A DNA stretch of 61,888 nucleotides, counting the filler, from Sluysia triapertura (lineage: Eukaryota), in the NCBI GenBank assembly GCA_046118255.1. It is 5 parts of 5 records of this genome, joined end to end, with 100 filler letters (N's around TTAATTAATTAA, not from the genome) between each part and the next. Parts side by side here need not be neighbours in the genome. Positions count along the whole stretch, not along the records: positions 12,555 to 23,563 come from JBJNIA010190230.1; 4 more parts are not named here. One strand, given 5' to 3'. The notes under the pieces were generated by a model. It was not told where the DNA came from and searched no databases. It saw only the letters and a program-made list of their open reading frames with translations. Below are positions 10,138 through 41,660 of this stretch, piece by piece. How positions within the stretch are numbered: the stretch's first letter is position 1; every line of letters starts with the position of its first letter. A program made the position numbers and the translations under genes.

Positions 10138-11475
10138 TTAAATATTCTTTATTGTAATTATATCGTTAGGCTTCAAATTTAATGTATAAGGAGTATCAGT
10201 TTCGTGAATCAATTCTGAATTAGGTGTTCTAAATTCTAATTGTGATACTAAAGGAACACCCATTCGAGCACAAAAAGTTTTCATTGCCTGACTCATTTTA
10301 GTTAAATATCTAGTTTTAAAACGTAGCTTTTTCCCCGTCGTTTCACACTGAAAATAAAGATTTATATGACAATTCTTAACTTTAGCGATTGATTCATCAA
10401 AATGATCTGTATCTAAGCAAACGAGGTATTCATTATTTAAATTGTACTCGACAATATTACTAGAGACATTTTTCGGTTTTACTTTAGACTCAACTATTAC
10501 TTTTTTATTATATTGCGACATAAAATTTTGATGTTCGATAGAATCAATACTAGCTTTTCTATGACACATAAGAAGCTCATTATCAATATTAGATTTTAAA
10601 TTTTGAATCGTCATCTTTGGTGCTGCAGGTATATCACCTTGAATATCATTACAATATTTTGATATACTTTCATTATCACTTATATCTTTAAGTTTATTAA
10701 ATTCGATCAATCTTTCTTTTTCATAATTATCTATTACAAGTTTATTGTACAATTTAGTATTCTGATTCAAATTTTCATTAATATTAATAAATGTATCTTT
10801 ACTATGCATGTTCTCTGAAACTGAATTACTTTTACAGTTAAGTATTGCCATATCATTAGCTTCCACGTTAATAACTTCATTACTTCTTGTAAATTTATTT
10901 CTTTTGATATCATAAGAAACCTCAGTTACTTGATAATTATCTACTTTTAAATCACACTCTTTTTTATTGGAAGCGTTTGAATTTTGTTTAAATAATTCAT
11001 TATTTTTATCATTTTCAAGTGAAGAGTTTTTATCATGTGATGATGTGTTTAATTTTTCATTATAAATAAGTAATGGATGTGGCAAAACTCGATGAAATTG
11101 TTGATCATAATTATTCAAAATTGGGTTTGCTATTTCTGTGATTTTTTTCATCATTAATGTTTTATTAATTCTCTCAAGGAAAGCTTGCTCATCATTTGTT
11201 GATTTTTTAAGTTTTGAAAATTTATTTGAATTATTAGAATTTTGTATGAGATTACTGGAAAATCCTTTATTTGGAACTAATTTAAAAGAATGATTTCGAA
11301 ATGATTTAAATGTGCTTATTTTATTTCTAGGAATCAGTTGTAAATCTTGATATGTGCTCTCTGAACAATATAAAGGTATATTCTTATTACCAATTAAATG
11401 TAATCCAGTATTTTCAGAAAAATTTTTTGAATTTTCCATATTTACACAATTGAAATCTCGAAATACATTATGCAT
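10138..11475 (-). CDS. Protein with long Asn/Lys/Ser-rich region and C-terminal SUMO-like domain (Rad60/Esc2/NIP45 SLD type); possibly a terminal exon
   Basis: Uninterrupted 445 codons in AT-rich DNA; C-term HINLYFQCETTGKKLRFK...KMSQAMKTFCARMGVP...LEF...IHETDTPYTLNLKPNDIITI matches the SUMO pattern; no terminal GG; frame stays open upstream of the ATG to ~11506. Confidence 0.8.
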   Translation of the reverse strand: MHNVFRDFNCVNMENSKNFSENTGLHLIGNKNIPLYCSESTYQDLQLIPRNKISTFKSFRNHSFKLVPNKGFSSNLIQNSNNSNKFSKLKKSTNDEQAFLERINKTLMMKKITEIANPILNNYDQQFHRVLPHPLLIYNEKLNTSSHDKNSSLENDKNNELFKQNSNASNKKECDLKVDNYQVTEVSYDIKRNKFTRSNEVINVEANDMAILNCKSNSVSENMHSKDTFININENLNQNTKLYNKLVIDNYEKERLIEFNKLKDISDNESISKYCNDIQGDIPAAPKMTIQNLKSNIDNELLMCHRKASIDSIEHQNFMSQYNKKVIVESKVKPKNVSSNIVEYNLNNEYLVCLDTDHFDESIAKVKNCHINLYFQCETTGKKLRFKTRYLTKMSQAMKTFCARMGVPLVSQLEFRTPNSELIHETDTPYTLNLKPNDIITIKNI

Positions 11476-12454
11476 CTCAGTGTAACTATCTTTATAATAT
11501 TCTTCGCTTTTATATAAATAAAAATGATTTTATTTATGAATACAATATAAATAAATCAATTTTATATAATTAAGGTAGGTTAAAATAATAAAATTCTAAT
11601 TACCATAATTTTTAAGAATCCTCAAAAACTAGGAAACTTAGGATTTTCAGACGGATTTTTCTACAGAATAAGAAATTTATTCAATTTGATTTAGTTTCTT
11701 TTGTTAAATTAGCATCATTTTTTAAGGTTTGTGTTAAATCTTTGGGCTATGCACACTTTGATGCGGTATAGTAAGATTAAAATTTTCATGGTAAATATAT
11801 CCTTGTTATCTGACGTTGAGTAACTTTCGCTATATGTAAAAATAATAAAAGTGAATGTGTATGCTTGAAATAAAGTTTAATATGTAATGTACATAAAAAT
11901 ATTGCTGGCTATGTATGGAAAGTTTTTACTTGAAATATAAGTGCATGATATTATGCGTTTTAAAGCTTAATTTTTCTACAAAAGCGTTATTGAAGTCAAT
12001 AATTTCGCTGCTGCAAAATCTTAACTCCAACTTATGCTTTTGTAAAATATGGATATGCAACTATAAACTGAATTTGAAATCAATAATTAAGAAAGAATCA
12101 ATAATTGAAGACAAAGTGTTTAAAAGTAAGTATTTCAGGATCAATGAAGAAATTCATTTTATAATTTTCAATAATAAAAATAACCACAATGCTAAAATAA
12201 ATTATAAAAATTGAAAGGTTTTATATAGATTCACAAATAAATGTGGAAGAAAATTTTATTTGTGTTGTATAAAGAGAATATCAAATATTCGAAAATTCAT
12301 TAATAAATATATGTAAAAACTATTTGTGCATTCATTGATTTTAATAATAGCTTATTAAACAATATTCTGTACAAAAAGTGCGAAAGTTTCAATTAAAATC
12401 ATGATTCCATATTATTCCAGTTACCAGTAACGGCAAGAAAAGAATTCAAAATCA

Positions 12455-12623: not shown

Positions 12624-13740
12624 AGAATTAATTACAGTTTCTTTCCGATGTCACTCGTGCATAAGTATTATTTTCTTGTTATATTAGTTATTCAATAATG
12701 CAGCTATAAAATAGACTACCTTTGGTTTACGATTTTAATGTTTTGCATCAATATTATTCTTATATTATTAGAATTTGAGGTATCAATTACTTGTATTAAT
12801 GTATTAACCCATTAAATAATGAGGCAAAGCTACAAAATATATTAACATTTTACAAAAATTCCAAATACATTAATATTTTATGAAGCAACTAACATTCGCA
12901 AAACATTTCTACAGACATTAATGATTCAAACAAAGTAATATTAAATAAATCATGGACTAATAAACAAAACTTTATTGTCTATATTAAAATTACAAAATTC
13001 CCATTTTATAATTATCTTTAACAATGTAAGTTTTAATTAGTAAATATTGTCATATATTAATAAAAGTAAATGAAATTTTAAAAAATAAACAAAAATTGAA
13101 AAAGAAAACTGAAAATTTCAAATTGTCTGCCAAATCAAAATTTTGAATAAGCAATGTCCGTAACATTGGAAGAACAGAAAAATAATAAAATGAAATTTTC
13201 TTTTTATTACATATTGGATTCTATATTTCTATACAAATTTAGTTTGTTTTATCTTAGATTTTATTGTTTCATATTTTTAATTAAACTTTGTTTATTTTTT
13301 ATGTTATCATTTATTAGTTTTACTCAAGATTACATAAGAAAATTGTATAATGCAAATCTTTTACAAATTATATACAAATCAAATAAAAAGTTTGAAACAA
13401 CTTATGCACTATTTTAAAACTTTACTAAACCCCTTAACGTCCACATTCCAGTTGATTTTAGAGAGGTCGTTATTGTAAATATAAATTATGTATATTGTTT
13501 TTGAATAAATATTGAGTACTGTGCCGAAAATAATAAACCAAGATTTTAATTAATTTATTATTGTTTGAAATAAAATTGATAAATTTTACAATATTAATAC
13601 AAATTTTAAGAAAAGTTTTATTATTCACTGCAAAATGGAATAAATAAACATATATTAAATGTATTAATTGAAATATTATATTCTAACACCCAAAGGGATG
13701 TATCTCAAGCTAAGATAGTAGATTTTAAAACACATAAAAC

Positions 13741-14170
13741 TGTGAGAATAAGTAGAGATAATATAGAATAAAGTAGAATTTTAACGTGAGTCCACCAACG
13801 TGCTAGGTTTACCAGTTAGGGCTAACCGTTGGGTTTTTCTATACTTGAAAGGATTTTCACTAAGGAAAATATCTTAGTGTTTGCTTAAGTTTACAAATGC
13901 TTTAAAGTCAAGGTCTGTGTATATCTAATTAGTTTTTCAAATTTTATAAGGACAATTAAACCTAGATCTGGAGGAATTTAGTTATAGTACTGAAAACCGT
14001 TTATAATTTTAATTATAACAATACAAGTCGTTTATAAATGATTTTATGGACAACCTATTCAAAGGATTTGTGTTTGAGATAAATGATTTTGCGTTGTCAT
14101 AATTATACTTTGACTGAAAACTTTACTTGTACTGATAAATTTAGTAATTTTAAAACTATGAAAATTAATA
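13741..14170 (-). repeat. 3' LTR (left)
   Basis: Starts TGTG; agaataaag...gtgagtccaccaacgtgctagg...ccgttgg shared with 22289-22593 and 41208+; inner boundary uncertain. Confidence 0.7.
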
Positions 14171-14449
14171 TATTAATGTATTTTAGTTTTTTCAGTTATC
14201 CTTAACTTAGTTATAGTGTTCTTATTTGGTTTATAACTTATAGTTTCCTTGATAATGGGTATAACTAAATTATATGGTTGTGTGATTGACCAATTGTTTA
14301 TTTTTATTCTTTCGTTAGCATTTAATATCCATGTGTATATAATTGGAAATGTTAACTCAGGGTAATAGTTCATCATAGTTGTTTGTTTCAGTGGAATTAA
14401 TTCAAGAACTGTTTTTCTATTAGTCCCATAATTTATTATAATTGAGGTA

Positions 14450-17140
14450 TTTGACAATGGTTCCATTATATCCATTGCAGTAAATTTCATTGGTGAGAGT
14501 GGTATAGGCATATGTTTTAGTGGTAATTTTGTTTTTATTCCTGTATTCTTTCTTCTACAGCAAATAGCACAATTCTTACACCATTTTTAATGTCTTCTTC
14601 TCTACTATCCCAAAAGTATTTATTTTTGATTCGTGATAATTTCTTTATGTTGATAATTGTCCATATAATTTCCCATCGTGATATTGAATTAATAATGGTG
14701 TTATTAAAGATTTTGGTACAATTGTCTTCCACTCATCTTTTGAAACTCTAAAACATAAGATACCATCTGTTATTGATAACTTTTTTGCTTGATCTTCATT
14801 TAATAATCTTTTTGCTATTGCTTCGAATGCATCTTCATCTTCTCTTTGATGTTTTATTATTTCTTTTAGTTCTTCCATTTTCCCTGAAATTGACATTTTT
14901 TGTATAAAATTTATTTTTTCTTGTTCATCAGTATTGGTTAATCGAGACATAAAATCAGCACCATTATTCATTGATCCTGGTTTATATATTATTTGTAGAT
15001 CGAATTCTGCTAACTTGTGAACTATCTATTTAATCGACTTACTTCTATGGTTGTAGAGATATGTTAATGGTTTATGATCTGTATATATAAATACATTCTG
15101 TCCTAATAAATAATATGTAAATAGTTTACATGCATATACAATTGCTAAACATTCCTTTTCAATAGTTGAGTAGTTCAATTCGGCTTTATTTAATCTTCTA
15201 CTTGCATATGCTATTACTCCTAAATTTTCTTTATTTCTTTGTCCCAGAAATGCTCCTGTTGCAAAATTACTAGCAATTGCTGTTAATATAAAAGGTTTAC
15301 TCATATCTGGGAACATTAATAGAAAAAGTGTAGCTGTTAATCTTTTCTTTAATTCAATAAATGCCTTAGTTTGATCTTCAGTTCATTTAAATGTCACATT
15401 TTTCTGTGTTAACATTCTTAAAGGTCGAGCTATTTTTTCAAAATATTTTACGAATTTTCTATAATAATTTGCCAATCCTAAGAAACTTTGAATCTCCTTT
15501 ACATTATCTGGTGGTGGAAACTTTACAACTTTTTCTATATTTTTTGGATTCGGTTTTATGCCTTTATGTGAAACTATGTGACCTAAAAATTCAACTTGTT
15601 TTTCAGCCCATACACGTTTAGTTGGCTTAATTTTCAATCTCGCTACTTCTCAACTTTTTAATGTGTTATCTATATCAACTATATGAGTATAGAAATCTTT
15701 TGAAAATATTATGATATCATCAATATAAACCATAATATTTGTAAAACCGGATAATACGAAATTCATACATCTTTGGAATGTTGCCCGTGAGCCTGTTAAT
15801 CCGACCCACATTTATATAATTCATATCCGCCTGAAAATGCTGTTTTATGTTTATCTTTTTCCGCAATTTCTATTTGCCAGTAACTACTCTGAAAATCTAA
15901 TGTAGTAAAATATTTAACGTTTCCTAATTTATCCAACATCATATCGATTCTTGGTAATGGAAACACATCTTTTCTTGTTATTTTGTTATTTTTCTCTAAA
16001 ATCTGTACAAAATCGCATAGTTCCGTCTTTCTTTTTAACTAACAACACTGGTGATGATAATGGAGAAAAAACTTGGTCTAATAACTCCAGCCCTTTTCAT
16101 TGTATCTATTTTATCCTTCATTTCTTGTTGATTACATAATGGAATTCTATATGGTTTATTTCTAATTACTTTATTTTCTCTTAGTGGAATTTCATGTTTT
16201 ATTATGACAGAATTTCCAATATCGTATTTATTTCTCGCAATTGCCCGAGGCTATCTATAAATGACTTTGTATAATGTTCCTTTTTGTCGTTTAGTTAAAT
16301 TTTTAATTTTTATTTGTATTTCTTCATAATCTTCTTCATCTTAAATATTTCTTTGTAGGCTTATCATTCGACACCATGTTTATTTGTGTTTGTAACTTAT
16401 AATTAACTATTTCTCCTAATTTTTCACCTGCATATAACCATATTTTCAGCAGTATAATTTATTATTCTTATAAGTATATTTCCATCTGAAAATTGAATCA
16501 GCAATGCCTATGTTAAATTTTTCTTAATTATTTTTTGAAGCTATATACATTATTTGACCATTTCTTAGACTGCTGGTTTTTTCTGGTGTTATACATTCTT
16601 TTCTCTTAAGTAATCAACGTGGTTATTCCAAGGTAACATCGTCATCATCTATTGAACTCTCAGTATATGTATCCATTAACCTTGCTATACTAAAATCTAA
16701 TGAAACTCATTTTAATTGTGAAAGTACATTCATACCTAATATCATATCTTCCGGACATTTTCTAATTACTTTGCATTTTATTTCAATTTTATTTTGTTCA
16801 ATTTCACGTAATATTTTTAATAATCCTAATATTTCAATTTCGGCGCCAGTTACTCCTGTCATATATGAGTGTTGTTTAGCTAAATTATTAAGTTCCTTAG
16901 TAGTTAATAATGATTCACTTATTAAGGATGCAACTGCTCCTGTATCTACCAATGCAGATAACATTCTTCTATTAACCATCATGCCCACCATAGGTTTTCT
17001 TGCGCTATTATAATTATTATTTGCGCATATAATATAAACTAAATTTCTTTGAGGAGGTTGATATAAAATTTGTTTTTCTTCTTCATTATTACCAACTTGT
17101 TCTATATTAACTGTTTGTGGAGCTATTTCTTCGGTTTGTT
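14450..17140 (-). pseudogene. pol: Gypsy pol: aspartic protease, RT, RNase H, integrase zinc finger; integrase core deleted
   Basis: ALVDTGA...MILGMN (PR); [45 protein letters not shown] (RT); YASRRL...NYSTIEKECLAIV...TDHKPL (RH); HDGKLYG...WCKNCAIC, then AMDIMEPL before homology stops. Confidence 0.95.
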
Positions 17141-18320
17141 TTTAAAGGATTTAATTGAGTATGAGCGTGATAATGTAACAGAAACTAAGCTAAAAATGGA
17201 AAACAGCCATTTATTAATTTCCAAGTGAAACCTGATATTTTATAAATACCTACTACTGAAAATATTTTAAGATCAATGACTTTACTTATTACATATATAC
17301 CTATTAAACCAGAAAAAGCTTGACCTATTACTAGAAAATTTCCCAAATTTGTTTTAAAGTATTATGTGCTGCTTTCTGAAAGTGATCGGGTCCTAATAAT
17401 AATTCAAAATTTATTTTACCATCTTTTTCTACGATTGCTTTATCGACTATATTTGTAAGTACTTTTGACCTTTTAATAGGAAATAGTATTTCATGTCTAG
17501 CTGCTTGAATATCTTCGTTAGAATAAATTCCTCATCTTGGAATATTTTTGGTAACTGAAAATTTTAATTTCGTTTTTAATTCTGTTAATTTCTGAAGTTT
17601 TAACTTGGCTTCTATTCGATAAAGATATACACAAATTACATAAATTTTATATTCTGGAGCCATTACATTTGAACAGTATAATGTTTTTGGTTTAAGTTTA
17701 TAAGTTGGCATAATGATTCTAGTCACTGGTTCTAAATAAGATTTTTGATTTTTGTATATTATTGGTAATCCATTAGTACATTTATTTTCTTGTCTTATTT
17801 GTACTTCTACTTTTCTACATTTGTATGGATATAAAACTTCACCCATTAATATACCAAAAACTCCTTCTTCTAAAAGAAGTAATGGTGCCTCTAAATCTGG
17901 GTCTGTTATTGCTACTGCTAATTTAGTTCTTAATATTTCTTTGTTTATTGACTGTCTACCTATCATGGCTTGATAAACTTTTTTCAATGGCATTAGTCCT
18001 AAAAGGTAATAAAAATCAATTTTATTGTTAAAATACGTATTTAATTCTAAATTTTGTGTCTGTTCCTTTCTTGGCTTTTAGTATTGTCTTTTCGGATAAA
18101 TATATTCCTGGTAATTTGTTTATGTAATCTCTTTTCCACATCTGATTACTGATTTCTTTGATACAAATATTAGTCCATCTTCTTCTTTATTTGCCATTAT
18201 AATAGTTGAAGTTTCTATTTCATTAAGTCTTTTCTTTCTTGTATATCTAAATTATCTTTATAAATTTGTTTTTTGTTTATCTCTTCTATTGCTAATTCAT
18301 CTTCGTTTTGATACATAAAT
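17107..18320 (-). pseudogene. env: env, C-terminal part: chuvirus/gB-like class III glycoprotein including TM region
   Basis: RCG...NLELNTYFNNKIDF; GEVLYPYKCRKVEVQIRQENKCTNGLPI...YLEPVTRII...C; GIYSNEDIQAARHEILFP; IWGNFLVIGQAFSGLIGIYVI (one frameshift), all in the order seen in chuviral glycoproteins. Confidence 0.85.
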
Positions 18321-18326
18321 CTCGAG

Positions 18327-19990
18327 ATTAGTTTAAATTTAATTTGTTTCAAAAATATTAATGGACAATGAAATTTTTCTAATTCTCATATTAATATAGA
18401 TTCACCAATACCACACTGGTTTGATCACTCTTACAAAATGGTATAGATATCATAGTACCTTTATCTAAGTTAAAAATTTCGTTAAAAGATTTTAAGCTTA
18501 CTACATAGTGCGGTGCCACTCCTATCTCAATAAATTCGTTACCCTCAAAAAATTTATAGAATTCTGTATTCAACCCATTCATTTCACTATTACTTTCCCA
18601 CATTAACATAAAATATAAATCATACTCTCCAAGCTCCAAATTTCACACTAAAATGATTTTTATCAACATCATAGTTCCTCCCTCTCTGATTACCATCCAC
18701 ACCATCATCATCACCTTTATCATCTTTCTTTATTTTATTACTTTTTCAATTTTTAGTATTATTATTATTTTTATAATTTTTATTAATTTTATTATTTTTA
18801 TAATTTTTATTAATTTTATTATTTTTATAATTTTTTAATTTTTTACTACTTTTATTATTTTAATTACTTTTATAATTATTATTACTTTAATTATTTTTAT
18901 TATTTTTTTATTATTTTGAATATTATTTTATTATTTCGAATACTCATTTGCAAAAATTAGTGCAATATACTTCAAAATCTATGTTTATGCTAAAAATTTT
19001 AGTATAACTTTAGTAAACAAAATCGAGATGAATAATATAAGTAGCAAACGGGATGAATTGTTAGAAGCCCTCTTCAATGAGGTTACTAATTCTTCTGAAC
19101 AAGTTATGAATGAAGTCGAAGGTAAGATTTTACTGTGGTATATTTTGAAGAAAAGTCTATCCATAATGTGCCAGTAGATCTAAACATTGGCGATTTAGAA
19201 AAATTATTAGATCCAAAATTTTAATCCACAAATTTTAAATTACTTTAAATCTGCATTATTCAATCCAACGACTGATATTACATGTGAAAGTGAAGTCGAA
19301 GGTAAGCTAAATCATTTTTAACTTACTGTAGTGTATCTTAAAGACAAGTTCACTCATAATCTGCCAGCTGATTTTATCATTGGTGATGTAAAGAAACTAT
19401 TACAATCAAATTCAAACGTTCTCGCACTAAATCACGAATGGACCTTACGCGGGATATTAGTTGTTATTATTAATCTAGACGATTTAATTTTTATTAAATC
19501 TTATAAAGAAATTGTTGTTGCTTTATCTCTAATTCAAACTGATCGTCCATTTAAAATGGAAGCTGACATTAAAGTCTTTGTGGCCAGCAAGGTTGTATTT
19601 GATTTGAGTTTTCATTTTGTATCATGCGCCGACAGCGTGCTTTCCCTGTATTATTATCATTATTATTATTATTGTGGTAAAATTTTCAACTTTATTTTTG
19701 AAATAGATAAAATAGATATATTTGGAAATTAAAAAGACTAGACATGACCTTAAGTCTAAGTTTTATTTTGAATTTTTAGCTCTTGTAACGGACCTTAAGT
19801 CTAATTTTTGAGAACAAATTCAAACTAATTTAATTAATGTATTTTTTAAATTATACTCGTTTCATTTCATAAAACCTTTGTTAACTACTAATTTTATTAC
19901 ACAAGAGTCACAATATTCTACCACTCGATCACATCACATAGATTTTCTGAGCTATAACATAGGTTTACTGAGCTATAACATAGGTTTACT
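18327..19990. mobile_element. ~1.6-kb insertion interrupting env
   Basis: env homology stops at ~20005 and resumes at ~18320; imperfect inverted repeat 18327-18356 / 19804-19829; 27-nt and 21-nt tandem repeats inside. Confidence 0.6.
19028..19732 (+). pseudogene. Decayed gene with two tandem (180-bp period) ubiquitin-like-fold segments
   Basis: gaagtcgaaggtaag at 19112 and 19292, followed by FTVVYFEEKSIHNVPVDLNIGDLEKLL and LTVVYLKDKFTHNLPADFIIGDVKKLLQSNSNV. Confidence 0.45.
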
Positions 19991-20004
19991 GAGCCATAAA
20001 GTAA

Positions 20005-20486
20005 ATTTTTCTTTCGTATTCTATTGAACCTCGCTCGTACGTACCATCCATTAATACGTTACCAGCGGTTCTAACATTATAAATTATTTTCTCATTATTT
20101 TAAATTTTTAATCTGTCTCCTTTCTTTAAACTTAAATATCCAGTTTCAAAAGCGTCACGACAATTGTTAGGCGATATTTTGAATGGTTTTAATATATTTG
20201 ATATATAAATAATCGAAGAGTGACTGTGGTGTCCGCAATACCAAATAACTACGAATCTTTTTACTAAACATTCTCTAGCCAGTGTTGTAACCAAATTTCC
20301 TTCTTGATAAACATTTAATACTTTCATATCTTTTATTTTGACTCTATTTGGTCTTGATTCGGGACAATCTTCAGTGTCCGATAAAGAAAACTTTCTTCCA
20401 ATTTGGAGTTGGCTAAAGTCAAAAGCCTTTACAGCATTGGTTTAATGAATTCCAAATAATGCTAGTAAAACAATTATAAATAACAT
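20005..20486 (-). pseudogene. env: env, N-terminal part with signal peptide
   Basis: MLFIIVLLALFGIH*TNAVKAFD...FSLSDTEDCP...VYQE...ARECLVKR...WYCGHHSHSS...CRDAFETG...AGNVLMDG; YCGxHSH is characteristic of chuvirus-like glycoproteins. Confidence 0.85.
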
Positions 20487-21341
20487 ATTATTTATTGAAG
20501 TTCCGAAATGTAGATATGATTCATTTGAATTTCCTTTATTGTTAATTAACTTCAATATCGTGTTAAACGTTCATTTGAAATATTCTTTTCTTCTTTTTCT
20601 TTAAAAATGTTCTTCTAACCACCTAGTTTTTCAATCAGAGTACTTAAGTTCTTATCAACAAAGTTTATGACTTTATCTCTCTTTTCTTTAGTTAAAAGTG
20701 CTGCTTTATTACATTGAAATATTATATAAGCCATTATTATTTTAAGTCTTTCTTTATTAATTCAGACATTGATTTGTTTATTTATTATGGCTTTGTACCG
20801 GCCGTTATCTATGTAATCATCTATATCCGTATTTTGATTTTTTTTCATCATTTTAATTATCTTAAATATTGCATTTTTTTATTGTTTTAATTCAGGTAAT
20901 AATATCTTATATTTATCAAAGTTTGAAAATTTATTAGATACTAGTGCATAAATTATACTTTTGGTATTTAATGTTTATTCTAAATTTTTATAAGTAATTT
21001 TAGTTAAATCAATGGGTTTTCTATGTCTTGGAGTTGGGATTATTGCTTCATCTTCATTATCTTTATTTTATTGGTTTCTTTCTCTTCAGTTTCTATATGT
21101 GGATTTTTATTTAAATCTATTACGTAATCAGGTTTTTCTTAAAAATCATCTTCATTATCATTAGTCATATCTATTATTTTACCATTACCTGTACAATCTT
21201 TATTAGAATTATTTTCATTATAATTATCTCCCATTAATTCTCTTAATAATGAAATGGGGTTCTGTCTAAATCAACATCATTGTCATCATTTATTAGTTAA
21301 TCTAATTTTCGTAAATCATCTGAAGTCATTGCAGAAGTCAC

Positions 21342-21551
21342 TCATGCTTCCTCATGGTTTCCATTCATTGATAGATAACCGTAATAATTTATATAATCAT
21401 TAGGTGATAATTTCCTGTCATAAAAATATAAATCAACATCAGTTATAGTAGAGATATTTGACTTAAGTAATTCTATTATATCTTTTACAATTGAAGTTAC
21501 TGTAAGTTCCATAGTAATATTCAAAGCATTATTAATAATTATACTTATTTT
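21342..21551 (-). pseudogene. Ubiquitin-like (beta-grasp) segment in the gag-env spacer
   Basis: KISIIINNALNITMELTVTSIVKDIIELLKSN...LYFYDRKLSPNDYINYYGY aligns by eye with ubiquitin ITLEV...TIENVK...LIFAGKQLEDGRTLSDYNI. Confidence 0.55.
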
Positions 21552-21867
21552 ATTAATTCTTTAGGTTTGTCTTTTCTTTCTTTTTGTCCTATTTTCCTTA
21601 GTAATTTTCATTCATTAGTCTTATATAAACTATCTTCCTTACTTAAAATAGCTAATATTAAATTATTTCTTATCCATTTTGTATATTTAGTTCTAAATTC
21701 ATTTAAATTTCCATTTAAATCTTTCTACTTGCCATATCTGATAAAAATTCATCAACTTTTAGATAAGTTTTTTAATTTTTATTTCTGGGGTATCTATCTT
21801 TTTATTAGTTGATATTATTATTATTACTGATTCCATTTCTTCTGTGGCACTTTAATACGCATCTTCT

Positions 21868-22041
21868 TCATCTAATTTCATATTCAAAAAGAAAATCGCA
21901 AAGATCTTCCTCTGCTTCATTAAATTTTCTCATTTCAGGTAATGCCATTATCGAGTGCATTTCTCTGGCTAGTTGAGCCACATATTCCTTAAAATCATTA
22001 GGTAGTGTCATAATTTCTTAGTTTTGATCTGTAATCGTCAT
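21868..22041 (-). pseudogene. gag: gag N-terminal (capsid start) fragment
   Basis: LPEMRKFNEAEEDLCDFLFEYEIR resembles the PxFxG..ED..DFL..YE start of Gypsy capsids; first ORF after the PBS; remainder of capsid not seen. Confidence 0.6.
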
Positions 22042-22260
22042 GTAGTACAATTTGTATATCTATTTTTCTTAAAATTTAGTTAATCTGTTAATAATCAACT
22101 TAGGTAATAATTTTGCTCAAGTTTAACTTATTCTTAATGAAATCGTAATCAAATTCTTTAATCAAATTCTTAAATGCTTCAAATTTATAATCAATTCTTA
22201 TTTACAGGTCCTCAAATACTTAAATCTTTATATTTATTTTTAAATTATTTCAATACTGGT

Positions 22261-22277
22261 CCTCACTCTGGGCACCA
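22261..22277 (-). promoter_or_regulatory. Primer-binding site, tRNA-Lys(CUU)-like
   Basis: Minus strand TGGTGCCCAGAGTGAGG versus canonical TGGCGCCCAACGTGGGG (13/17), 11 nt from the LTR edge. Confidence 0.7.
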
Positions 22278-22288
22278 GTTTATTCTGC

Positions 22289-22593
22289 TGTGGTTTTTCC
22301 TAACCTTACAGAATAAAGCAACCTTATAAGTGAGTCTACCAACGTACTAAGCTAGCCGTTGGATTTTAAATAAAAGAGTTTTGATTGAAGATTAAAAACT
22401 GTTTAGTACTTACTAGCTTAGACGTAAAATTCTTTTAACTTAATGAAATATGAAGGTTATAATGAGATTTTGCGGAAATCATATGAAAAGGATTTAATTC
22501 AATTGATTTTAAGAGATCAGAATGAAATTCTGATAAAACTTTAATGCACGGGCGATTTTATGATTTTGAAACTATATAAATTGCTTAATATCA
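22289..22593 (-). repeat. 5' LTR (right)
   Basis: TGTGG...ATATCA ends; homologous to 13741-14170 and 41208+. Confidence 0.75.
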
Positions 22594-24099
22594 AAAACAA
22601 AACTTTCTTTTTTAAATAATTATGTATTAAATATTATTGGTCAATAAGTTAATAAATATTGATATACAGCAATAATTATAAATAAAGTTAATTTTTATAA
22701 AAGGGAAGTTTAAATGTATTTTGCGTGAAAACCGTTAAATGTTTTCAATATCTTTATAAAACAAAATCTAAGTATATTTTTCGTGGAATACTTATTAGTA
22801 TCAAAATCTTACAAAATAAACTAACGTATTTTAAATTATTTAAAAACAGAAGAACTCTTTATATGAATATCCTCTTGGAAGAAGACGATAGAATTCATCC
22901 GTGTACTGGATAAAAAACACTTATAAATATCGATTTCAAATATTGTCGCTGTTAACTGTATGATTTTTGAGTAAATTAGTATACATTTATATATGTTTTC
23001 ATTGGCCTTGGCCTTACTTCAATAAAACAAAATGATATTTTATACTATTAATATTTTATTACAAATATTTACATTATTCAATATTTTAAAATAATATTAA
23101 TTATTACTTACGTTACTTTCTTATTAAAATATTATATTTAATCCAAATATTTAAATTAAATCCAAGAATAAATGATTAAAATAAATGATTAAAGCAAATC
23201 AATAATTGTTAATGCACATATTGTCAAAAATGAATAATACGTATTGTTAATAATAATAAATGCGCACACAATAACATATTATCACATAAAAACTAATAAC
23301 TGCTTGTAGTGACCTCGTCATTCGGTATCAATCACAATTCATCACACAACATTCACTATAACTCATCTCACAAAGTTCAACACACTTCATCATTTAAAAA
23401 CGATACTTATATACATAAACTACTAAACGAACTATTAAACTCATTCAAAAAATAAACGTTACCATCTCATTTAATCATTATGAACTATTATTATTATTAT
23501 GATTAACATCTTTTCAAAATTCAAATTAAAGTTATAAATTTTAACTATCATGAACTATTATTANNNNNNNNNNNNNNNNNNNNNNNNNNNNNNNNNNNNN
23601 NNNNNNNTTAATTAATTAANNNNNNNNNNNNNNNNNNNNNNNNNNNNNNNNNNNNNNNNNNNNTATGTCAATTATAAACTCGTTAGAACCTCTATTTTTC
23701 TAATACTGCTTATGTAAAATTGTTGAGATTGCCCAACTGTGGAACAATAAATGAGAACGGAAGAGGTGGAATTGAAAAATTCAGGAAGAATTCGTATAAA
23801 ATTATGGCAAGGTGGGATAAAACATTTTTAAAGTAAGAATAATGAAGATGAAAACATCTATAGTCATTTTGGTAATTGAAGAATACCTTGGAGTTTCAAA
23901 GACATTGTAGAATGTCGAACCCATTGGAAAAAACTTGAGAGTTGTCAGAAAAACCTTTAACTTAAACTTAATTATTAGTAATATTAAAGATAAATTTGAT
24001 GTATTAATAATTAACATAAAGAAGTTGAAAAAGGATTCAGAATGGTAAAAGTTAAAGCATCTATAACCATTTGAATGCCTTCTAAAGTAGTAAACAACT

Positions 24100-24516
24100 T
24101 CAAAACCTTAATAAAACCTTTAAACATAAAGTGAGATTAAGTCTGAAAATATTAATTAATTTATTTAAGAAAAATAGCTTTTGTGAATAACGTTTGAATG
24201 AAGAATGTTATGTCAAAATTGTAATTGTGTATGTATTTGTTTTCAAAAGATATGATTTCATCAAAGGTAAAGAAAGCCTTAATTTTTAGAAAAGTCAAAT
24301 TTTAATTACATTTTAATTATAGAATGTTGAATTTTTCACATTTAGAATAATGGAAGTATGAAGAATAGAATATGGGATCTAGAAGTGAGTTTGAAATGTT
24401 TGTGAAGTGGTTTATATGAGAATAAGAATCTTAAACATTTTTCATTAGAAAATTAAGTTTTAAAAATTGAAAATGAATTAGATTCTAAAAAATAAAGTTA
24501 AATTCATTTTTTTAAT
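24100..24516 (+). repeat. ~400-bp dispersed repeat, copy 2
   Basis: Aligns with 925-1326. Confidence 0.85.
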
Positions 24517-26248
24517 GTTTTTGTAAAACTTAACCTATGGAAAAATATTTTTGAGCAGGGTCCGTGTAGTGTTCAGCTCATACATAAACTACTAACACAG
24601 ACGATCACAAACATTCACCACATATTACACCAACATATAATAATCTAAATAAAATAAAATATTTCTTTTAGTAACTTAAATAATATATAATATATGTTAA
24701 TGTAAACGGATTATAATATATTTAAACTACAATAACTTATTATATAATGTTACTTTTAGTCCGCCGTGATCACCTTATCCAACTCCATCAACATTGTATA
24801 AATTTCCACACCCTTTCTTGTTGTTACTATCATTCTTATTATTAATATTAGTATTATTATTGTCATTATTATTACTATTATTATTTTATGACATGTTCTA
24901 AATCGTTAATGCTTTTGATCGTCATTCTTAATCTAATTTAAAAACTGAACACATATCATAAATGGATGTATTGTTATTAACACTAACACATCCATCTAAG
25001 TTCATGCTTACAAAAAAAAGTTCCAATTTCAATTTCTAAGCTTCAAATAATAAATTAATATCATTTAAGACCAACAACAAATTTAATCATTCGAGATATA
25101 AAAGAATTTTAATTTTTCAATAACGCTTTATTTTTTGAATTTTTAATCTATTTCAGTCTACTTACAGCAATAAATAAAGAAAATAGTAGTAAATAAATTT
25201 ATTAAAATTCTATTTTTAAATATGACTCAAGATAAAAGGATGTGTTTAGTAAAAGTTTCAAATGACAAATATTCTAACAATTTTATATATATACGCTGTG
25301 TATTCTTTTTTCGTTAAAATTATTTCGTGCAAAATTATTTTTCTACATATTCGCCTATATTATAGGTTTTAAGTTCACAAAAAAGAATTTTACAATATCT
25401 TAATGGTTTTATGTAACTAACAGTTCGATTGTTATAAGTAGATATTCTGAACAAGCTTCAGTGATACTAAAACATACTTTGGAATTGTACTTTTGTTAAA
25501 GAATGTATTTAAGGAATTATAATTATTTAATAAATGTTAGAAATTGTTAAAATTTATTTACTTATAACAATCAACAGTAGTAATTATATAATTTATTGTG
25601 TTTAATTGAATTCTAGTATGGCATTACTTAAAATTATGAATATAATAAACTAATTAATGCAAACATTTTTTGGATGAGAAATGTATACAAGATTTTCTAT
25701 TAACGGAATTTTTTTCGAAAGTTTTTAAACGATTATTCTTAATAATTTGTTGTGTATTATTATTATTATTTTTATTATTATTGTTGTCTTTATGATTATT
25801 ATTATCATTATTTTTATATTTTTTTGTTTTAATTTTGCGAAATTATTATTAGCTATATAGTTCGAAGGTCGAACCAGAGATAAAGGTATCAATTTAAAAT
25901 ATTTCAACATTACAATTTAAAATTATTCAGAAAAGTTTTCAAGAGTTTATGTTAACAATGATTCGCGATTGTTGTAGTATCTATCAAATAGTTAGCCAGA
26001 CGATTTCGGAGTTTAATTTGAGAGATGGGAAGTGTCGGGTCATCTTGGTACTGCCATGGTTGTAATAAATTATTCTGCATTGAAGTTCAACTCAGATACA
26101 TGTGGATCTAAACGTATTTACACGTCTTTGAAAAACAAATTATTAGATATTGTCGATTCGACCTTTATGCATCCAGTTATGACAAATACACTTATATGTA
26201 TATAATGAAGCTGGGATTACCCAAGATAATGTACTGCCTGTAAATACA

Positions 26249-32539: not shown

Positions 32540-33564
32540 CCCAGGTGGATACTTGGGCCTTGAAAATTAAAAGTATTTTACGTAGATTTTAACACAGTCA
32601 ATCGCAGTGAACTACTTAATATAAATAGCTTACGTAATCACAAAGAAAATTGATCCAAATAAGGATTCCAAATATAAACTTCAGATGCAATTCCGAATAC
32701 TCCTTGTGCGGATAATAGCCAATTGTGTCACCGACCGAGTAATAGTCCAAAGGATTTTGATAATACCAATCACGATTTATAAAATAAAATTATCCTTGTA
32801 ATTGCGCGGTAATAACGTCTTGTATACTTTACGTGCAAGTGTCTCAATATCATCAATATCCTTAGCGTCTGCGATGTCCGAATCTTTAATGTCTTGAATG
32901 TCTCTGAGGAAATTCTTTATGCGCAGTCTAGGTTTAATATTGATATTTGTGTGATGTTTAGAATATGGCGTACAAGAAAGTTGTGTTATGCGAGGACGAT
33001 TCAGAAAATCAAAAGCGTGCGAATACGCGACAAAAACCAACCAATCCTCATCATAGCCAGACATGGGAGGGACGTGTGTAAAGGACATCCCATTTTGCCA
33101 ACGCGCCAGATTGATAGTGTTGTCTTCATACAAATTTGGCAGAAACGATTGAAAGTCAGACAGTTGTAAATGAAAAAGTAAGGCTACAAAAGTAGGGTAT
33201 TTGGTTGCTTCTATGATTATATTACATTATATTATGTAAATTCGTAACATGCATGGAAGAAAAACTATGTACTCGGGTAAAGAATGGTGCTCCGGTATCT
33301 ATTAAAGTTACTTTAACCACTCTTCTAGCGATGACTAAATAAAGGGAATTAATAGAATCAGGAACTTGACTAAGGCCGTCCAAGGTAATAAAAGGAGAGT
33401 CAGGTTTCAATGAGAATATGTGAGTAGCCAGATTTACATTTAGTTAAGACTTCAAGCTATTAGGAGTAGAGACAGTCACTAAAAAACGCTGGTGTGATGT
33501 TTTCATGGCAGTACTTAATGTAGACATAAAAGTTCTTCTGCTGATTCAGTAGTTTGGCTTGCAT
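32540..33564 (-). pseudogene. Paralogue B of the DEDDh-fold pseudo-exonuclease gene, frameshifted
   Basis: MQAKLLNQQKNFY...ATHIFSL...SFLPNLYEDN...WLVFVAYSHAFDFLNRPRITQLSCTPYS aligns along its length with 35942-37179. Confidence 0.8.
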
Positions 33565-34566: not shown

Positions 34567-35327
34567 TCAAGATGAATTTGTAACATTATTATTATAAGAC
34601 TCAAGCTTATCTATTGCTTTTGGATCTGAGTTCTTTTCATGTTTATCAATAACTGGTACTTGTACGTCAAATTTCCTAATGAATGGCCAAAATTCTGTTG
34701 TATTACTTGTTTCTTCATTACGTATAATCCAAATGCTGAAGAACATAATTTTAGTGTATGGATAACCATATATTCGAATAGTGTCTTTAGGAAAAACTAA
34801 TCCATAATTCATAACACCGTGTAAGGTATATTCTAATATTAGCGCATTATTCTCTAGTGGATTGTCTACTCGTATAATATTGCCAATATATCGATAAATT
34901 ATCATGGGAAATTCGATAATTTTCTGTGATTGACTGATAATGAATGGCTGAGTTCTAATTCTATAATGCCTTATTAAAACCATTTTTGAATTATGTTCGG
35001 GATCATGTTCGAGTTCTATTGTTAGTGTGACGTTGAACAATTGACATTCAATAAGATTATTACAAGAAATTATCCAATAAAAATATTTTTGTTTAATATC
35101 GATTCGCTTTGACACCAACCCATTAAACAACATTTTATGTAAAGATTGACCAATTTAAATTTATCTGTTTGTACTGCGACAATAATGTCCTTTTGAGTTG
35201 AAGTAACAGATATTCGAGGTGTTAAATCTCGCGGTATATGATTTTCTGAATTTAAATCTATCATACATGCGTTTGAAACATATGATAGACAAATACAAGC
35301 TAGTAATGTTGATCTGAGTTGTGTCAT
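34567..35327 (-). CDS. Secreted protein with two FN3-like domains; one frameshift near 35075-35090
   Basis: Signal-like MTQLRSTLLACICLSYVSNA; NNLIECQLFNVTLTI...IRTQP resembles the FN3 LxPCTxYNVxV...RTxP pattern; N-glycosylation sequons (NVT, NTT). Confidence 0.5.
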
Positions 35328-35693
35328 GTGCCAATTCCCATAAATGAATGGCGACTGATTATTCGAAGCATATTCGTAGATTGGAGGTGAGAATATTGGC
35401 ATACCTGGAGGAGGAGCGTAATTGTTTCGATGTGGAACTGTGTATGCATCGTCGTCGTCATTATTATTGTGTGGTAAACATGGGTATCGACATTTGTTTG
35501 AAACAAACATAATGATTGTTAGTACCACTATAGCTAAAGCGATTATGAATAGTATTGCTGCCACTATTAATATTATTAAAGCAGGATCATTCCGTAATGT
35601 TTCTAACATTGTTAAGTGTTTTCTAGTACCTTTTAGGTCAAAGTGTAAGTATTTCGATGATTGACAAATTTTTGTAATAATGTCTATCTTCAT
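35328..35693 (-). CDS. Single-pass membrane segment with acidic run and PPxY motif, in frame with the FN3-like protein
   Basis: ALIILIVAAILFIIALAIVVLTIIMFV TM helix; DDDDAY; YAPPPG and PPIY. Confidence 0.55.
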
Positions 35694-35941
35694 TAGGTAA
35701 CATATCTGAACATATTGTAATAGGATCCTTTAAGTCGTTATTTATGTAATTTTCATAGATAATCCACGAGCTGAAATTAAGTCTGGCTGGTTTCAGACAA
35801 GCAAACTTGGCATAAATATTTTGGTTTACTATTTTAACTTTTACTTCATTATCGTTATTATAAAATTCAAAGTGTTCTAATTACTAATTAATTATTTGTA
35901 AAACTGTTTTATTGTTTTATCCTTTTTTTTAGTCTATAACA

Positions 35942-37179
35942 ATGTACCCATCAGATACAAAAAGGCTGAGTCAGGTGAAACCCTTTTATACTTCCTTGAA
36001 CTCTTATTGTGACGAAACGGATCTTTCCATCTATTTCCCTAACTGCCACGTTACTCCAAATAAATTCCGAAGTGAGTTCGACTTTGATGTAGCGACTCAC
36101 ATTATTCCCCTTACAACTGAAACGCCTCATATTACTGTCAACGATTTAACGAATAGGCCACCTTATTTTCGTACTTTGCATATTGCCGTTGGCCGCGGAG
36201 CAGTAAAAGTCGTCGCCACCTTGAACATTCCTTTGACTTTTCGAGTGGACGCCATGTCAACAACTTGTCTCTCCGATATTAATATGCGCTGTGTAATATA
36301 TATCGAAGCATTAGAACTACCGTCTTCACTCGCACTTCTATTCTTACTGCCACACCGAGAATTGTATTCTTTCCTACCATGTTTATACGAAAAAGATCTT
36401 GATAATGTTGCTAAATGGGCAGAGGGTTCCTCTTTTACGCACAGACCTCTGTCTATGACGAGGAACGTCTCTTATTTGTCGCATGTCATCACGCTGTTGA
36501 TCTATCAGATAAACCTAGAATTATCCAATTGGCGTGTACGGCGTATAGTAATCAATATCATATGGAGGCCAAGATCCGCCCTTATTGTAGACTATCTAAC
36601 TTTCGTACCGACGTACACGGTCTCAAAGAAGATGACTTGAAAACCGCAAGTGATCTCTATGAAACACAACGGTATTTTTTGGCCAAGTTTCACGATAAGA
36701 TCTTGGTTACTTTTAATCCCAGCTTGGTTCTAAAAACGCTACATATTCCTTTTGGATGGGTCCGAGGAATCATCAATTTAAATAATCATAACCTTATTTC
36801 TATGCTTGCCCCAAGTATAATGGCTCGATCTCGGCAGACTTTTAAACCCTTATATCCTATCTTGCCGAGATTTGACTTTGTTAAAATGGCTACTGAATTG
36901 GTCCATCTTTTCAACTATATTAGGGAACATGATCTATCTTTTATTCCTAATTGTAACTTACCTCCTCTTTCTCTTTTTCAACCTGGCCCAGCCGATATAA
37001 TTGGGGACAATATGATAACGTGCCCATCACCACCGACGTCACCTTGTATCGACAATTCTCGACGGATAACCGGCACAACATCGCCTGTTTGCACGTTTCC
37101 TGGGACGAATTTCGTAGAAGATTGGGAATCGACCGACTCCGACAACGACGACGACAATACAGTGGACCTTGACAATTAA
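35942..37179 (+). CDS. Paralogue A: N-terminal unknown domain + DEDDh exonuclease-like domain without catalytic residues + Pro/acidic tail; one frameshift at ~36445-36450
   Basis: PRIIQLAC...IRPYCRLSNFRTDVHGLKEDDLKTASDLYETQ...KILVTFNPSLVLKTL follows the REXO4/ISG20/DnaQ pattern (VKP...TDYRT.VSGI...L....EVVQ...RILVGH...DLKVL). Confidence 0.7.
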
Positions 37180-39437: not shown

Positions 39438-40759
39438 TTAATATAAATAATTGTTTTCAATAATTGTTTAAAATTTTAATAAAGTTCGATTTTATTCCAG
39501 TTGATAAATTTAATAGCAATTTACATTTTCATCTCATTTGTCTTCCAATATTAATAATAATAAACGCTTTACGACGAGAACATATACCACAAAGTTCAAT
39601 ATAATTTCAAGCATTATTATAATAAATCATTAAAAAATTCTTCAGTTAAATTTGTAGATAGTTTTCAAAACAGTTTAACAAATTTAACTAACATTATGCC
39701 TACATTATCATTAATTAATAAGTTATTTTAAAATAGCGTAGCAAAATCGAAAAGTATTATCTTTATAACGTAGCTACTTCACTCTGTGTATTACAAAATG
39801 TTAAATAATTACCACCAAAGTAGAATAATGATATAAATGATTGTTGCTTCTTTACTCAGAAATCTCAAAAATCACAAAATCAAATACTAATTATTATAAT
39901 TAATTTTACCTTTTACAATAATATTAATAAATTTAATACTTTCTATAGTAATTCTTTATTACTATCAAATCTAACACTAAACTCAAAATAATGTAAAAAT
40001 AACAATGAAACAATTAAGGCAAACAGTTCTGATAAATTTTCAAAATTAGTTATTATCAAACTAAACAAAGAATAGTTAATAAAAATAAAATAATAACCAA
40101 AGGTGACAAAACACAAAAATTAAATTACTTACTTTAAAAAGAATAATTTCAAGATTTTACATATAAATAAAATGGAGCCTCTCCAAAATCTATACAAATA
40201 TTATTACCTAAATTAAAGTCAAATAGAAAGGAGGATTTCCCAAAAATTACTAGGCAAGTTAAAAGGGAGATTCATATTAAAAAATTTTCAATTCTTCTTT
40301 TTTAATCAACAAATGGTACTTTTCCCCAAAACTAAACAAATTAAAAATTAAATTATTAATAAAAGTGTGTAAACCTCTAAAATATAAAAATTAAATTAAT
40401 AATAAGTAAAAATAAAAATGTTACCAAATACATTATCTTCATGAATTTTGATAAATATGGACCTTCTTATTGCGGATTATTTTCTTTTGACTTAAATTCT
40501 TAAATATTTCCTTTTATAATTTCTCGTCATCCAATCATTTCTTATTTTTTCATCAAACATTTTCTGAAACAAATCATTACAACAATTCTTTGACAATTAA
40601 ACCGACAATAATAATTTTGACAGTATTACATGTAACGGCCTGTCAAACTTTATTAGATAGAGAACACAAAAAATTGATTAATCCATTACCCTACTCGATC
40701 TATTTTTAATTAAATTACTTCTTACATTAAAATAAAATCATTAATATTGTCAACGTGCA

Positions 40760-41195
40760 TTAAAATAATGAATTTAATTTTAGTTTTTAAAATTCAATTA
40801 ATTTTCGTTATTTCACACCCAATTTTCTAATAAATGTTTAAGGTTCTTATTCTCAAATAAACCACTTTACAAACATTTCAAACTCACTTATACATTCTCT
40901 TCTTTCGTAGCAGTCACTTCACATTCAATTCATTATCTTTAATAATTCTAAGTATAAAAAGTGCAACATCCTATAACTAAAAATTAATTAAAATTTTCCT
41001 TTATTAAGGCTCAATATTAAGGCTTTCCTTGCATGAACTCAGTCAGACCATACCTTCATCGAAAGATGTTTTTAAAACAAATACATTCATAGTTTCAACT
41101 TTGATAACATTTCATATTCTTAATTAAGATTTTAATTAATTAATCTATTTTTAGATTTTTATTTTTAAGGTTTTATTAAGGTTCTAAAATTATCT
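40760..41195 (-). repeat. ~400-bp dispersed repeat, copy 3 (inverted)
   Basis: Reverse complement aligns with 925-1326. Confidence 0.85.
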
Positions 41196-41207
41196 AGTAC
41201 TTTATGA

Positions 41208-41660
41208 TGTGTTTTTTCTTAACCTAACAGAATAAAGCAAACTTAAAATGAGTCCACCAACGTACTAGGCTACCGTTGAATTTTAAAATAAAGATTGGAT
41301 TTTAAAGTAAAAACGTAAAGTCTATGGAGGTTATATAAATTTATGCTACTTTTCTGAATGTAAAATAAATTTTTAATAGTCACTATTTTAATCAGGCTCT
41401 TAAATCGAACCTTTTTTCAGATTTAATTATTTTAATGAGGTTCTAAAATAAACGTTAAATTTTATCTTCAATGAATTTAAGTAGGTTCTGAAACATCCTT
41501 TTAAAAAATTTAAATCATATATTTAAAATTAGATATTTTAATATGGTTCTAAATTGAACCTTAAGAGTTTAATGAGATGTTAATGAGGTTCTAAAAGGAA
41601 TCTTTTTATAAATTTATTTAAATGATAATAACCGAGATTAAAAAATGATTTTTATTAAAT
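41208..41660 (-). mobile_element. Probable solo LTR of the env-bearing Gypsy family (right boundary uncertain)
   Basis: TGTGTTTTTTCTTAACCTAACAGAATAAAGC...tgagtccaccaacgtactaggctaccgttg closely matches 22289-22370. Confidence 0.7.

Follow-up and report, generated by a model that had tools for sequence, protein, structure and literature searches.

How an LTR retroelement whose envelope (env) gene precedes pol would make its pol proteins is the question raised by a 61,888-nucleotide stretch of Sluysia triapertura DNA (the window). In this stretch the frame of an env cytoplasmic tail overlaps the start of the protease frame, one nucleotide out of register. The original prediction had offered two readings, a single gag-env-pol polyprotein or a frameshift after env, and had cautioned that a decay indel could lie behind the offset. 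The element extends over 13.7-22.6 kb on the minus strand, in AT-rich, gapped eukaryotic DNA of ~25% GC, and is an LTR retroelement ordered as PBS-like site, gag-side remnants, env, protease (PR), RT, RNase H and truncated integrase (Table 1). As identified by Pfam and tblastn, its pol order is that of Ty3/gypsy (Metaviridae), with PR at 16994-16710 followed by RT/RNase H and the integrase zinc region, and the position of env, upstream of the protease and downstream of the PBS and gag-side remnant, gives the GAG-ENV-POL layout.

Table 1. Features of the retroelement, listed from its 5' to its 3' end, with positions counted along the window.
Feature	Position	Strand	Evidence
5' LTR-like remnant (limits approximate)	22278..22600	-	Weak collinear matches to 3' end
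PBS-like sequence beginning TGG	22260..22277	-	Read directly in sequence
Candidate gag capsid start	21871..22011	-	By-eye likeness to L002/P0008 capsid starts; no tblastn match
Candidate ubiquitin-like remnant	21330..21569	-	15% identity with L002 domain
Bcl-2-like helical remnant	20594..20788	-	hhalign to relatives' profile A3, weak
28-codon spacer	20487..20570	-	Translation; P0001 and P0003 alignments continue across it
env signal peptide (internal in relatives), Met at 20486	20427..20486	-	Hydrophobic segment
env ectodomain, first part	20040..20426	-	PF24664 positions 5-153, E 4.8e-16; tblastn
~1.5 kb unrelated DNA splitting env (limits approximate)	18520..20039		tblastn coverage gap; internal repeats
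env ectodomain remainder, several frames	17338..18519	-	PF24664 E 4.4e-22 on 17532-18077; tblastn frames
env membrane anchor (~17337-17275) and cytoplasmic tail	17143..17337	-	PF24664 positions 526-614, E 1.9e-8; translation
env-protease junction, +1 offset	17107..17146	-	env-tail and protease frames overlap by 32 nt
Linker and retropepsin protease (DTG at 16946)	16710..17141	-	PF13975 E 3e-8; PF00077 E 4.8e-8
Decayed PR-RT spacer (dUTPase-like position in Burro)	16071..16709	-	Partial tblastn matches to relatives' same region
RT (YIDD) and RNase H, three frames	14981..16069	-	PF00078, PF17917, PF17919
Integrase zinc-binding region and start of core	14431..14695	-	tblastn ends at 14428-14443 for nearly all relatives
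3' LTR-like remnant (limits approximate)	13735..14170	-	Weak matches to 5' end

The LTR-like ends are separated by ~8.7 kb, a small size that deletions may explain in part. Both matches between the ends are weak (80% over 44 nt and 65% over 161 columns), and default blastn returned no match between them. Part of the 5' end (22283-22399) resembles 41202-41314 at 82% identity, and a dispersed repeat of ~500 nt is present in three copies with 68-78% identity (896-1394, 24074-24518, and 40691-41314). Comparison with intact relatives by tblastn divided the element into nine homologous segments and gave at least eight frame changes, of which three fall within env (one of them spanning the ~1.5 kb insertion), one at the env-protease junction, three in RT and one at the integrase. 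We counted 20 stops in 1434 codons, 10 of them within the PR-RT spacer, a region of uncertain frame in which hidden frame changes may have inflated the count, and the remaining 10 in 1077 codons. The integrase core is missing. The window copy is a dead, partly deleted Ty3/gypsy element of the gag-env-pol kind. Part of the element was present in one sequencing run (share 0.27), and no RNA runs containing it were listed in the read-run lookup.

Three separate pieces of env matched PF24664, the Monjiviricetes fusion glycoprotein family, which would place the window env in the class III, mononegavirus-like type. The signal peptide aligned with the signal regions of 10 of the 14 relatives' queries, and is interrupted in the window by a stop at 20444-20442. 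As originally predicted, it is in frame with codons upstream: the 28 spacer codons (20570-20487) read directly into its Met, and are out of frame with the gag-side domain preceding them. A 21-nt unit is repeated three times at 19936-19999, on the edge of the insertion in env. Farther downstream the env frame is stopped at 17187-17185, just ahead of the tail quoted in the original prediction.

Most of the gag region of the window copy is unrecognizable. Neither a gag capsid nor a CCHC knuckle was detected in the window by Pfam or tblastn, while both are present in relatives, and the candidate ubiquitin-like piece had no ubiquitin match in Pfam; the L002 domain with which it was compared matches PF00240 (E 3.3e-5). 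The Bcl-2-like remnant aligned with profile A3, built on the helical domain of the relatives, over 65 columns (hhalign E 7.7e-4, probability 25%) in a frame that differs from that of the signal peptide. In L001, L002, P0001, P0005, and P0157 a Bcl-2-like helical domain directly precedes the signal peptide. Bcl-2 was the first of the PDB sequence matches to A3 (E 1.3e-3), and the predicted model of the relatives' domain (pLDDT 64) aligned with Bcl-xL at Z 8.3 (rmsd 2.9, 107 aligned), a Z value that by itself is middling for helical proteins. Ranks 1-19 of that fold search were all Bcl-2 family members. Foldseek gave no match for the domain at E<=0.001, all the rows it listed nevertheless being Bcl-2 or Bcl-xL, and an Atlas search with the domain gave no usable match. 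As modeled, the pre-env helical domain of the relatives resembles Bcl-2 in both sequence and fold. We dropped the domain as a candidate novel feature because it has already been published for the planarian element Burro (PMC6431247). A search, itself weak, for gag proteins that terminate directly downstream of the Bcl-2-like domain yielded just the ORF of L002 itself, P0001 and P0005.

Other ORFs were noted in the window. Those at 35933-37179 (plus strand) and 32777-33226 (minus strand) are alike by eye and may be the accessory ORFs of another decayed element, next to an ORF with hydrophobic segments (35070-35729). Among the relatives, L001 has a separate ORF after its polyprotein (L001:10617-12104) with a DEDD-type exonuclease domain (PF00929, E 1.4e-5), and window positions 36415-37176 match this exonuclease-like ORF with 22% identity over 108 aa (pairwise E 2e-6; no Pfam match). 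The minus strand also has a 463-aa low-complexity ORF (10138-11529) whose C-terminus looks SUMO-like by eye and which had no Pfam match at E<=0.05.

The junction itself is as originally described. The env-tail frame, which includes HYHAH at 17175-17161, terminates at a stop at 17109-17107, and the protease frame, shifted by +1, begins with KQTEE at 17141, includes the catalytic DTG and stays open to 16710. Residues 1217-1357 of the related polyprotein P0154 match window positions 17138-16710 (tblastn). From the post-anchor motif to the DTG there are ~83 codons in the window, and 78-172 aa in those relatives in which the script located the motif, the figure of 614 aa for P0001 being a pattern artefact.

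To see env and protease in intact relatives, we searched with the 181-aa env ORF by HMMER, which matched 352 proteins at E<=0.001 (the best 150 of 352 were used), and ordered the matches listed, together with members of their clusters, P0157 and two locus ORFs, by how closely they resemble the window env. Among the matches listed, the top 27 env relatives consist of eight fragments that end before the anchor and 19 sequences that reach it, and in 17 of these 19 the same ORF continues into a protease. When sequences were collapsed at 90% identity, env and protease were in one ORF in 14 of 16 clusters among the matches listed, with the protease of P0008 counted by motif only; the in-frame clusters, at least 14 in number among those matches, span 1250-4844 aa. 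Eight of the ORFs (P0003, P0006, P0022, P0151, P0154, P0013, L001, and L003) extend through RT, RNase H and integrase, and the P0010 polyprotein extends as far as RNase H. The exceptions are P0015, which ends 36 aa past the anchor region without a protease and looks like a stand-alone env, and P0005, which ends at the anchor region after departing from the family motif. Below rank 27, the matches listed are more distant, and fragments and stand-alone glycoproteins (600-750 aa) make up most of them.

Since proteins may have been called under other genetic codes, we also checked the DNA of the loci. With standard-code translation, open frames of 3426 codons in L001 and 2693 codons in L003 run across env, PR, RT, RNase H and integrase; this check of the env-protease reading in DNA covers these two loci, and the P entries are called proteins. 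On the gag side, the env ORF contains capsid or CCHC markers in seven clusters (P0006, P0007, P0008, P0013, P0014/P0156, P0157, and L003), and in seven further clusters it starts ahead of the signal peptide and has no gag marker. The ORF of L002 ends inside env, and its gag side is separated from the env signal peptide by a single in-frame TGA (L002:3058-3060), where P0001, P0157, and L001 have no stop; seen in one copy, this TGA may reflect either decay or readthrough. In a scan with the env profile, matches were found in at least 3 of 595 stretches in metagenome_contigs, 0 of 370 in viral_contigs and 0 of 331 in genome_contigs.

Some relatives have additional modules. In P0151, P0007, P0003, P0154, and L001 there are two to six protease-like domains per polyprotein (the window copy has one), and signal-like hydrophobic segments follow the integrase in the same ORF in P0003, P0006, P0151, P0154, L003, P0022, and L001 (aa 3020-3342). 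Most of these post-integrase modules also have a second anchor-like segment, which suggests that they may constitute an extra membrane protein. Another such hydrophobic module lies between the proteases of L001 (aa 1585-1771). For the C-terminal module of L001, fibronectin type III clusters came up at 0.91, though recognition was low and the lead is weak; the relatives' C-terminal modules had no match in the 3' end of the window element. The deposited record of the env-pol polyprotein P0006 assigns it, as a hypothetical protein, to a Flavobacteriaceae MAG, most likely as a result of eukaryotic contamination.

The polyprotein reading in the original prediction is borne out by the intact relatives, at the DNA level by L001 and L003, and has a precedent in Burro (PMC6431247). 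We consider it very probable that the window holds a gag-env-pol polyprotein element that has suffered a decay indel at the junction. Working elements would have one ORF for the gag-side domains, an internal signal peptide, the fusion glycoprotein with its anchor, PR, RT, RNase H and integrase. The chain would begin in the cytosol as gag until the internal signal peptide threads env into the ER, where signal peptidase would cut before a conserved AYDC-type start and free the env N-terminus. The anchor would then bring the chain back to the cytosol, PR, RT and integrase would be made as the tail of env, and pol would be freed from that tail by the element's own protease. We infer this topology and these cleavage steps from the hydrophobic segments and from established polyprotein biology. 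Synthesis of pol as the cytoplasmic tail of a fusion glycoprotein would imply that it is packaged via env and that the products are made in equal amounts. We also infer that the window element's own family was once in frame; the env-fused relatives compared are 44-55% identical to it in RT.

The +1 offset would then be an indel acquired after insertion (or introduced in assembly) and not a recoding signal. The decay that the original prediction had mentioned as a caveat has become the likeliest cause of the offset: since this copy already carries many other frame changes, the one at the junction needs no special cause. Decay is favored because recoding is not a credible cause of the seven other frame changes, which sit within env, RT or integrase.

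That ribosomes in one lineage are instead programmed to shift by +1 past the env anchor, with pol made only as an occasional extension of the env tail and thus at a lower level than gag-env, seems improbable to us. A single ORF forces gag, env and pol to be made in equal amounts, which other LTR elements avoid, and a +1 frameshift would be a means of escape from that constraint. The 32-nt overlap with an env-frame stop soon after it is as found at real recoding sites, and the A-run could permit re-pairing. Such a shift has against it the 14 of 16 related clusters that are in frame (among the matches listed) and the seven other frame changes of this copy. Moreover, no stimulatory structure was evident in the 101 nt downstream (z 0.39, with 127 of 200 shuffles folding as well), and no Ty1/Ty3-type +1 motif was seen. 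We rejected the heptamer T_TTA_AAA, which is in phase with the env tail, as a candidate slip site: it is a -1 motif, and the frame that it leads into is closed a few codons later; the protease requires +1. Heptamers of this type occur 46 times in 6060 nt of the element. With a heptamer of the wrong sign and no downstream folding signal, the frameshift branch of the original prediction was not upheld, and the evidence on the offset points to decay. Were the offset a conserved recoding site, it would represent a new way to tune pol, acting between env and pol and not between gag and pol.

We regard as very unlikely a second alternative, in which translation of env terminates at the env stop and pol has a message or a start of its own, either an RNA with env spliced out or an internal ATG. 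In its favor, the env signal peptide begins with a Met, Met codons lie just before the protease active site (16991-16964), and P0015 resembles a stand-alone env. However, the Met at the signal start is lacking in most relatives, and homology to the P0154 polyprotein reaches back to 17138, upstream of the first Met. The single acceptor-like site found, at 17190, is followed by stops in the protease frame, and splicing there was rejected on that account; between 17141 and 16950 no acceptor-like sites were found. Least credible of all is a chance nesting or recombination of env and pol from two elements, which the other insertion in this copy and its very diverged LTR-like ends might suggest, but env and RT share their top relatives (L001, P0154, P0151, P0006, and P0003), in which order and spacing are as in the window.

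A single ORF with env ahead of pol, as in the reading that we prefer, is said to occur in nematode endogenous retroviruses (NERVs), which Sacco et al. reportedly described in 2022 as having a continuous gag-env-pro-pol ORF. NERVs, like the window element, have env before pol in a Metaviridae element; they are reported from nematodes, and by eye their env rows look unlike the window env. Atlas virus (Belpaoviridae) is likewise an element with env within one polyprotein, of 2828 residues without stops or introns (PMC9094657). It differs from the window element in being of the BEL/Pao type, in its gag-pol-env order and in having a class II phlebovirus-like glycoprotein.

The same gene order as in the window is found in the GAG-ENV-POL errantiviruses with an HSV/gB-type env reported from nematodes, bryozoans and flatworms (Chary and Hayashi, PMC13524379); the searched passages of that paper do not state whether these genes make up one ORF. 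By eye, the N-terminal motifs of the window env resemble those in the six Platyhelminthes_C1a rows (Schmidtea) of that paper, and the Nematoda_C1 and Bryozoa_C2b env rows shown there are unlike it (PMC13524379).

The nearest parallel in anatomy is the planarian Burro/GYPSM1, compared here by its published description. This giant gypsy-like element has a single ORF of 4873 aa (Arkhipova and Yushenova, 2019, PMC6431247) that encodes gag, a ubiquitin/SUMO-like domain, a BCL2-like domain, env, protease, a dUTPase-like domain, RT, RNase H and integrase. Its env, which resembles mononegavirus fusion glycoproteins, is in frame with gag on one side and pol on the other, and Dugesia japonica has decaying copies interrupted by stops and frameshifts (PMC6431247). 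In planarians, smedwi-2 RNAi derepresses BURRO1 (PMC8532177). The window element resembles Burro in having a mononegavirus-like env between gag and pol and a BCL2-like domain just before env, and possibly in an upstream ubiquitin-like domain, for which the relatives give a clear case and the window a faint candidate. It differs in size (~8.7 kb, against >25-30 kb and an ORF of ~5000 aa for Burro), in that MATH, BIR and ankyrin domains were not seen in the window element (ankyrin repeats are present in P0151 and P0157), and in being dead and without an integrase core. We do not class it as a strict Burro because it falls short of the Burro size. The layout that the original prediction had called unusual for an LTR element is indeed rare among such elements, but it is not new, the polyprotein arrangement being already known from published work. 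The window element, decayed and Burro-like in its anatomy, belongs to the known gag-env-pol group and adds one dead copy to it.
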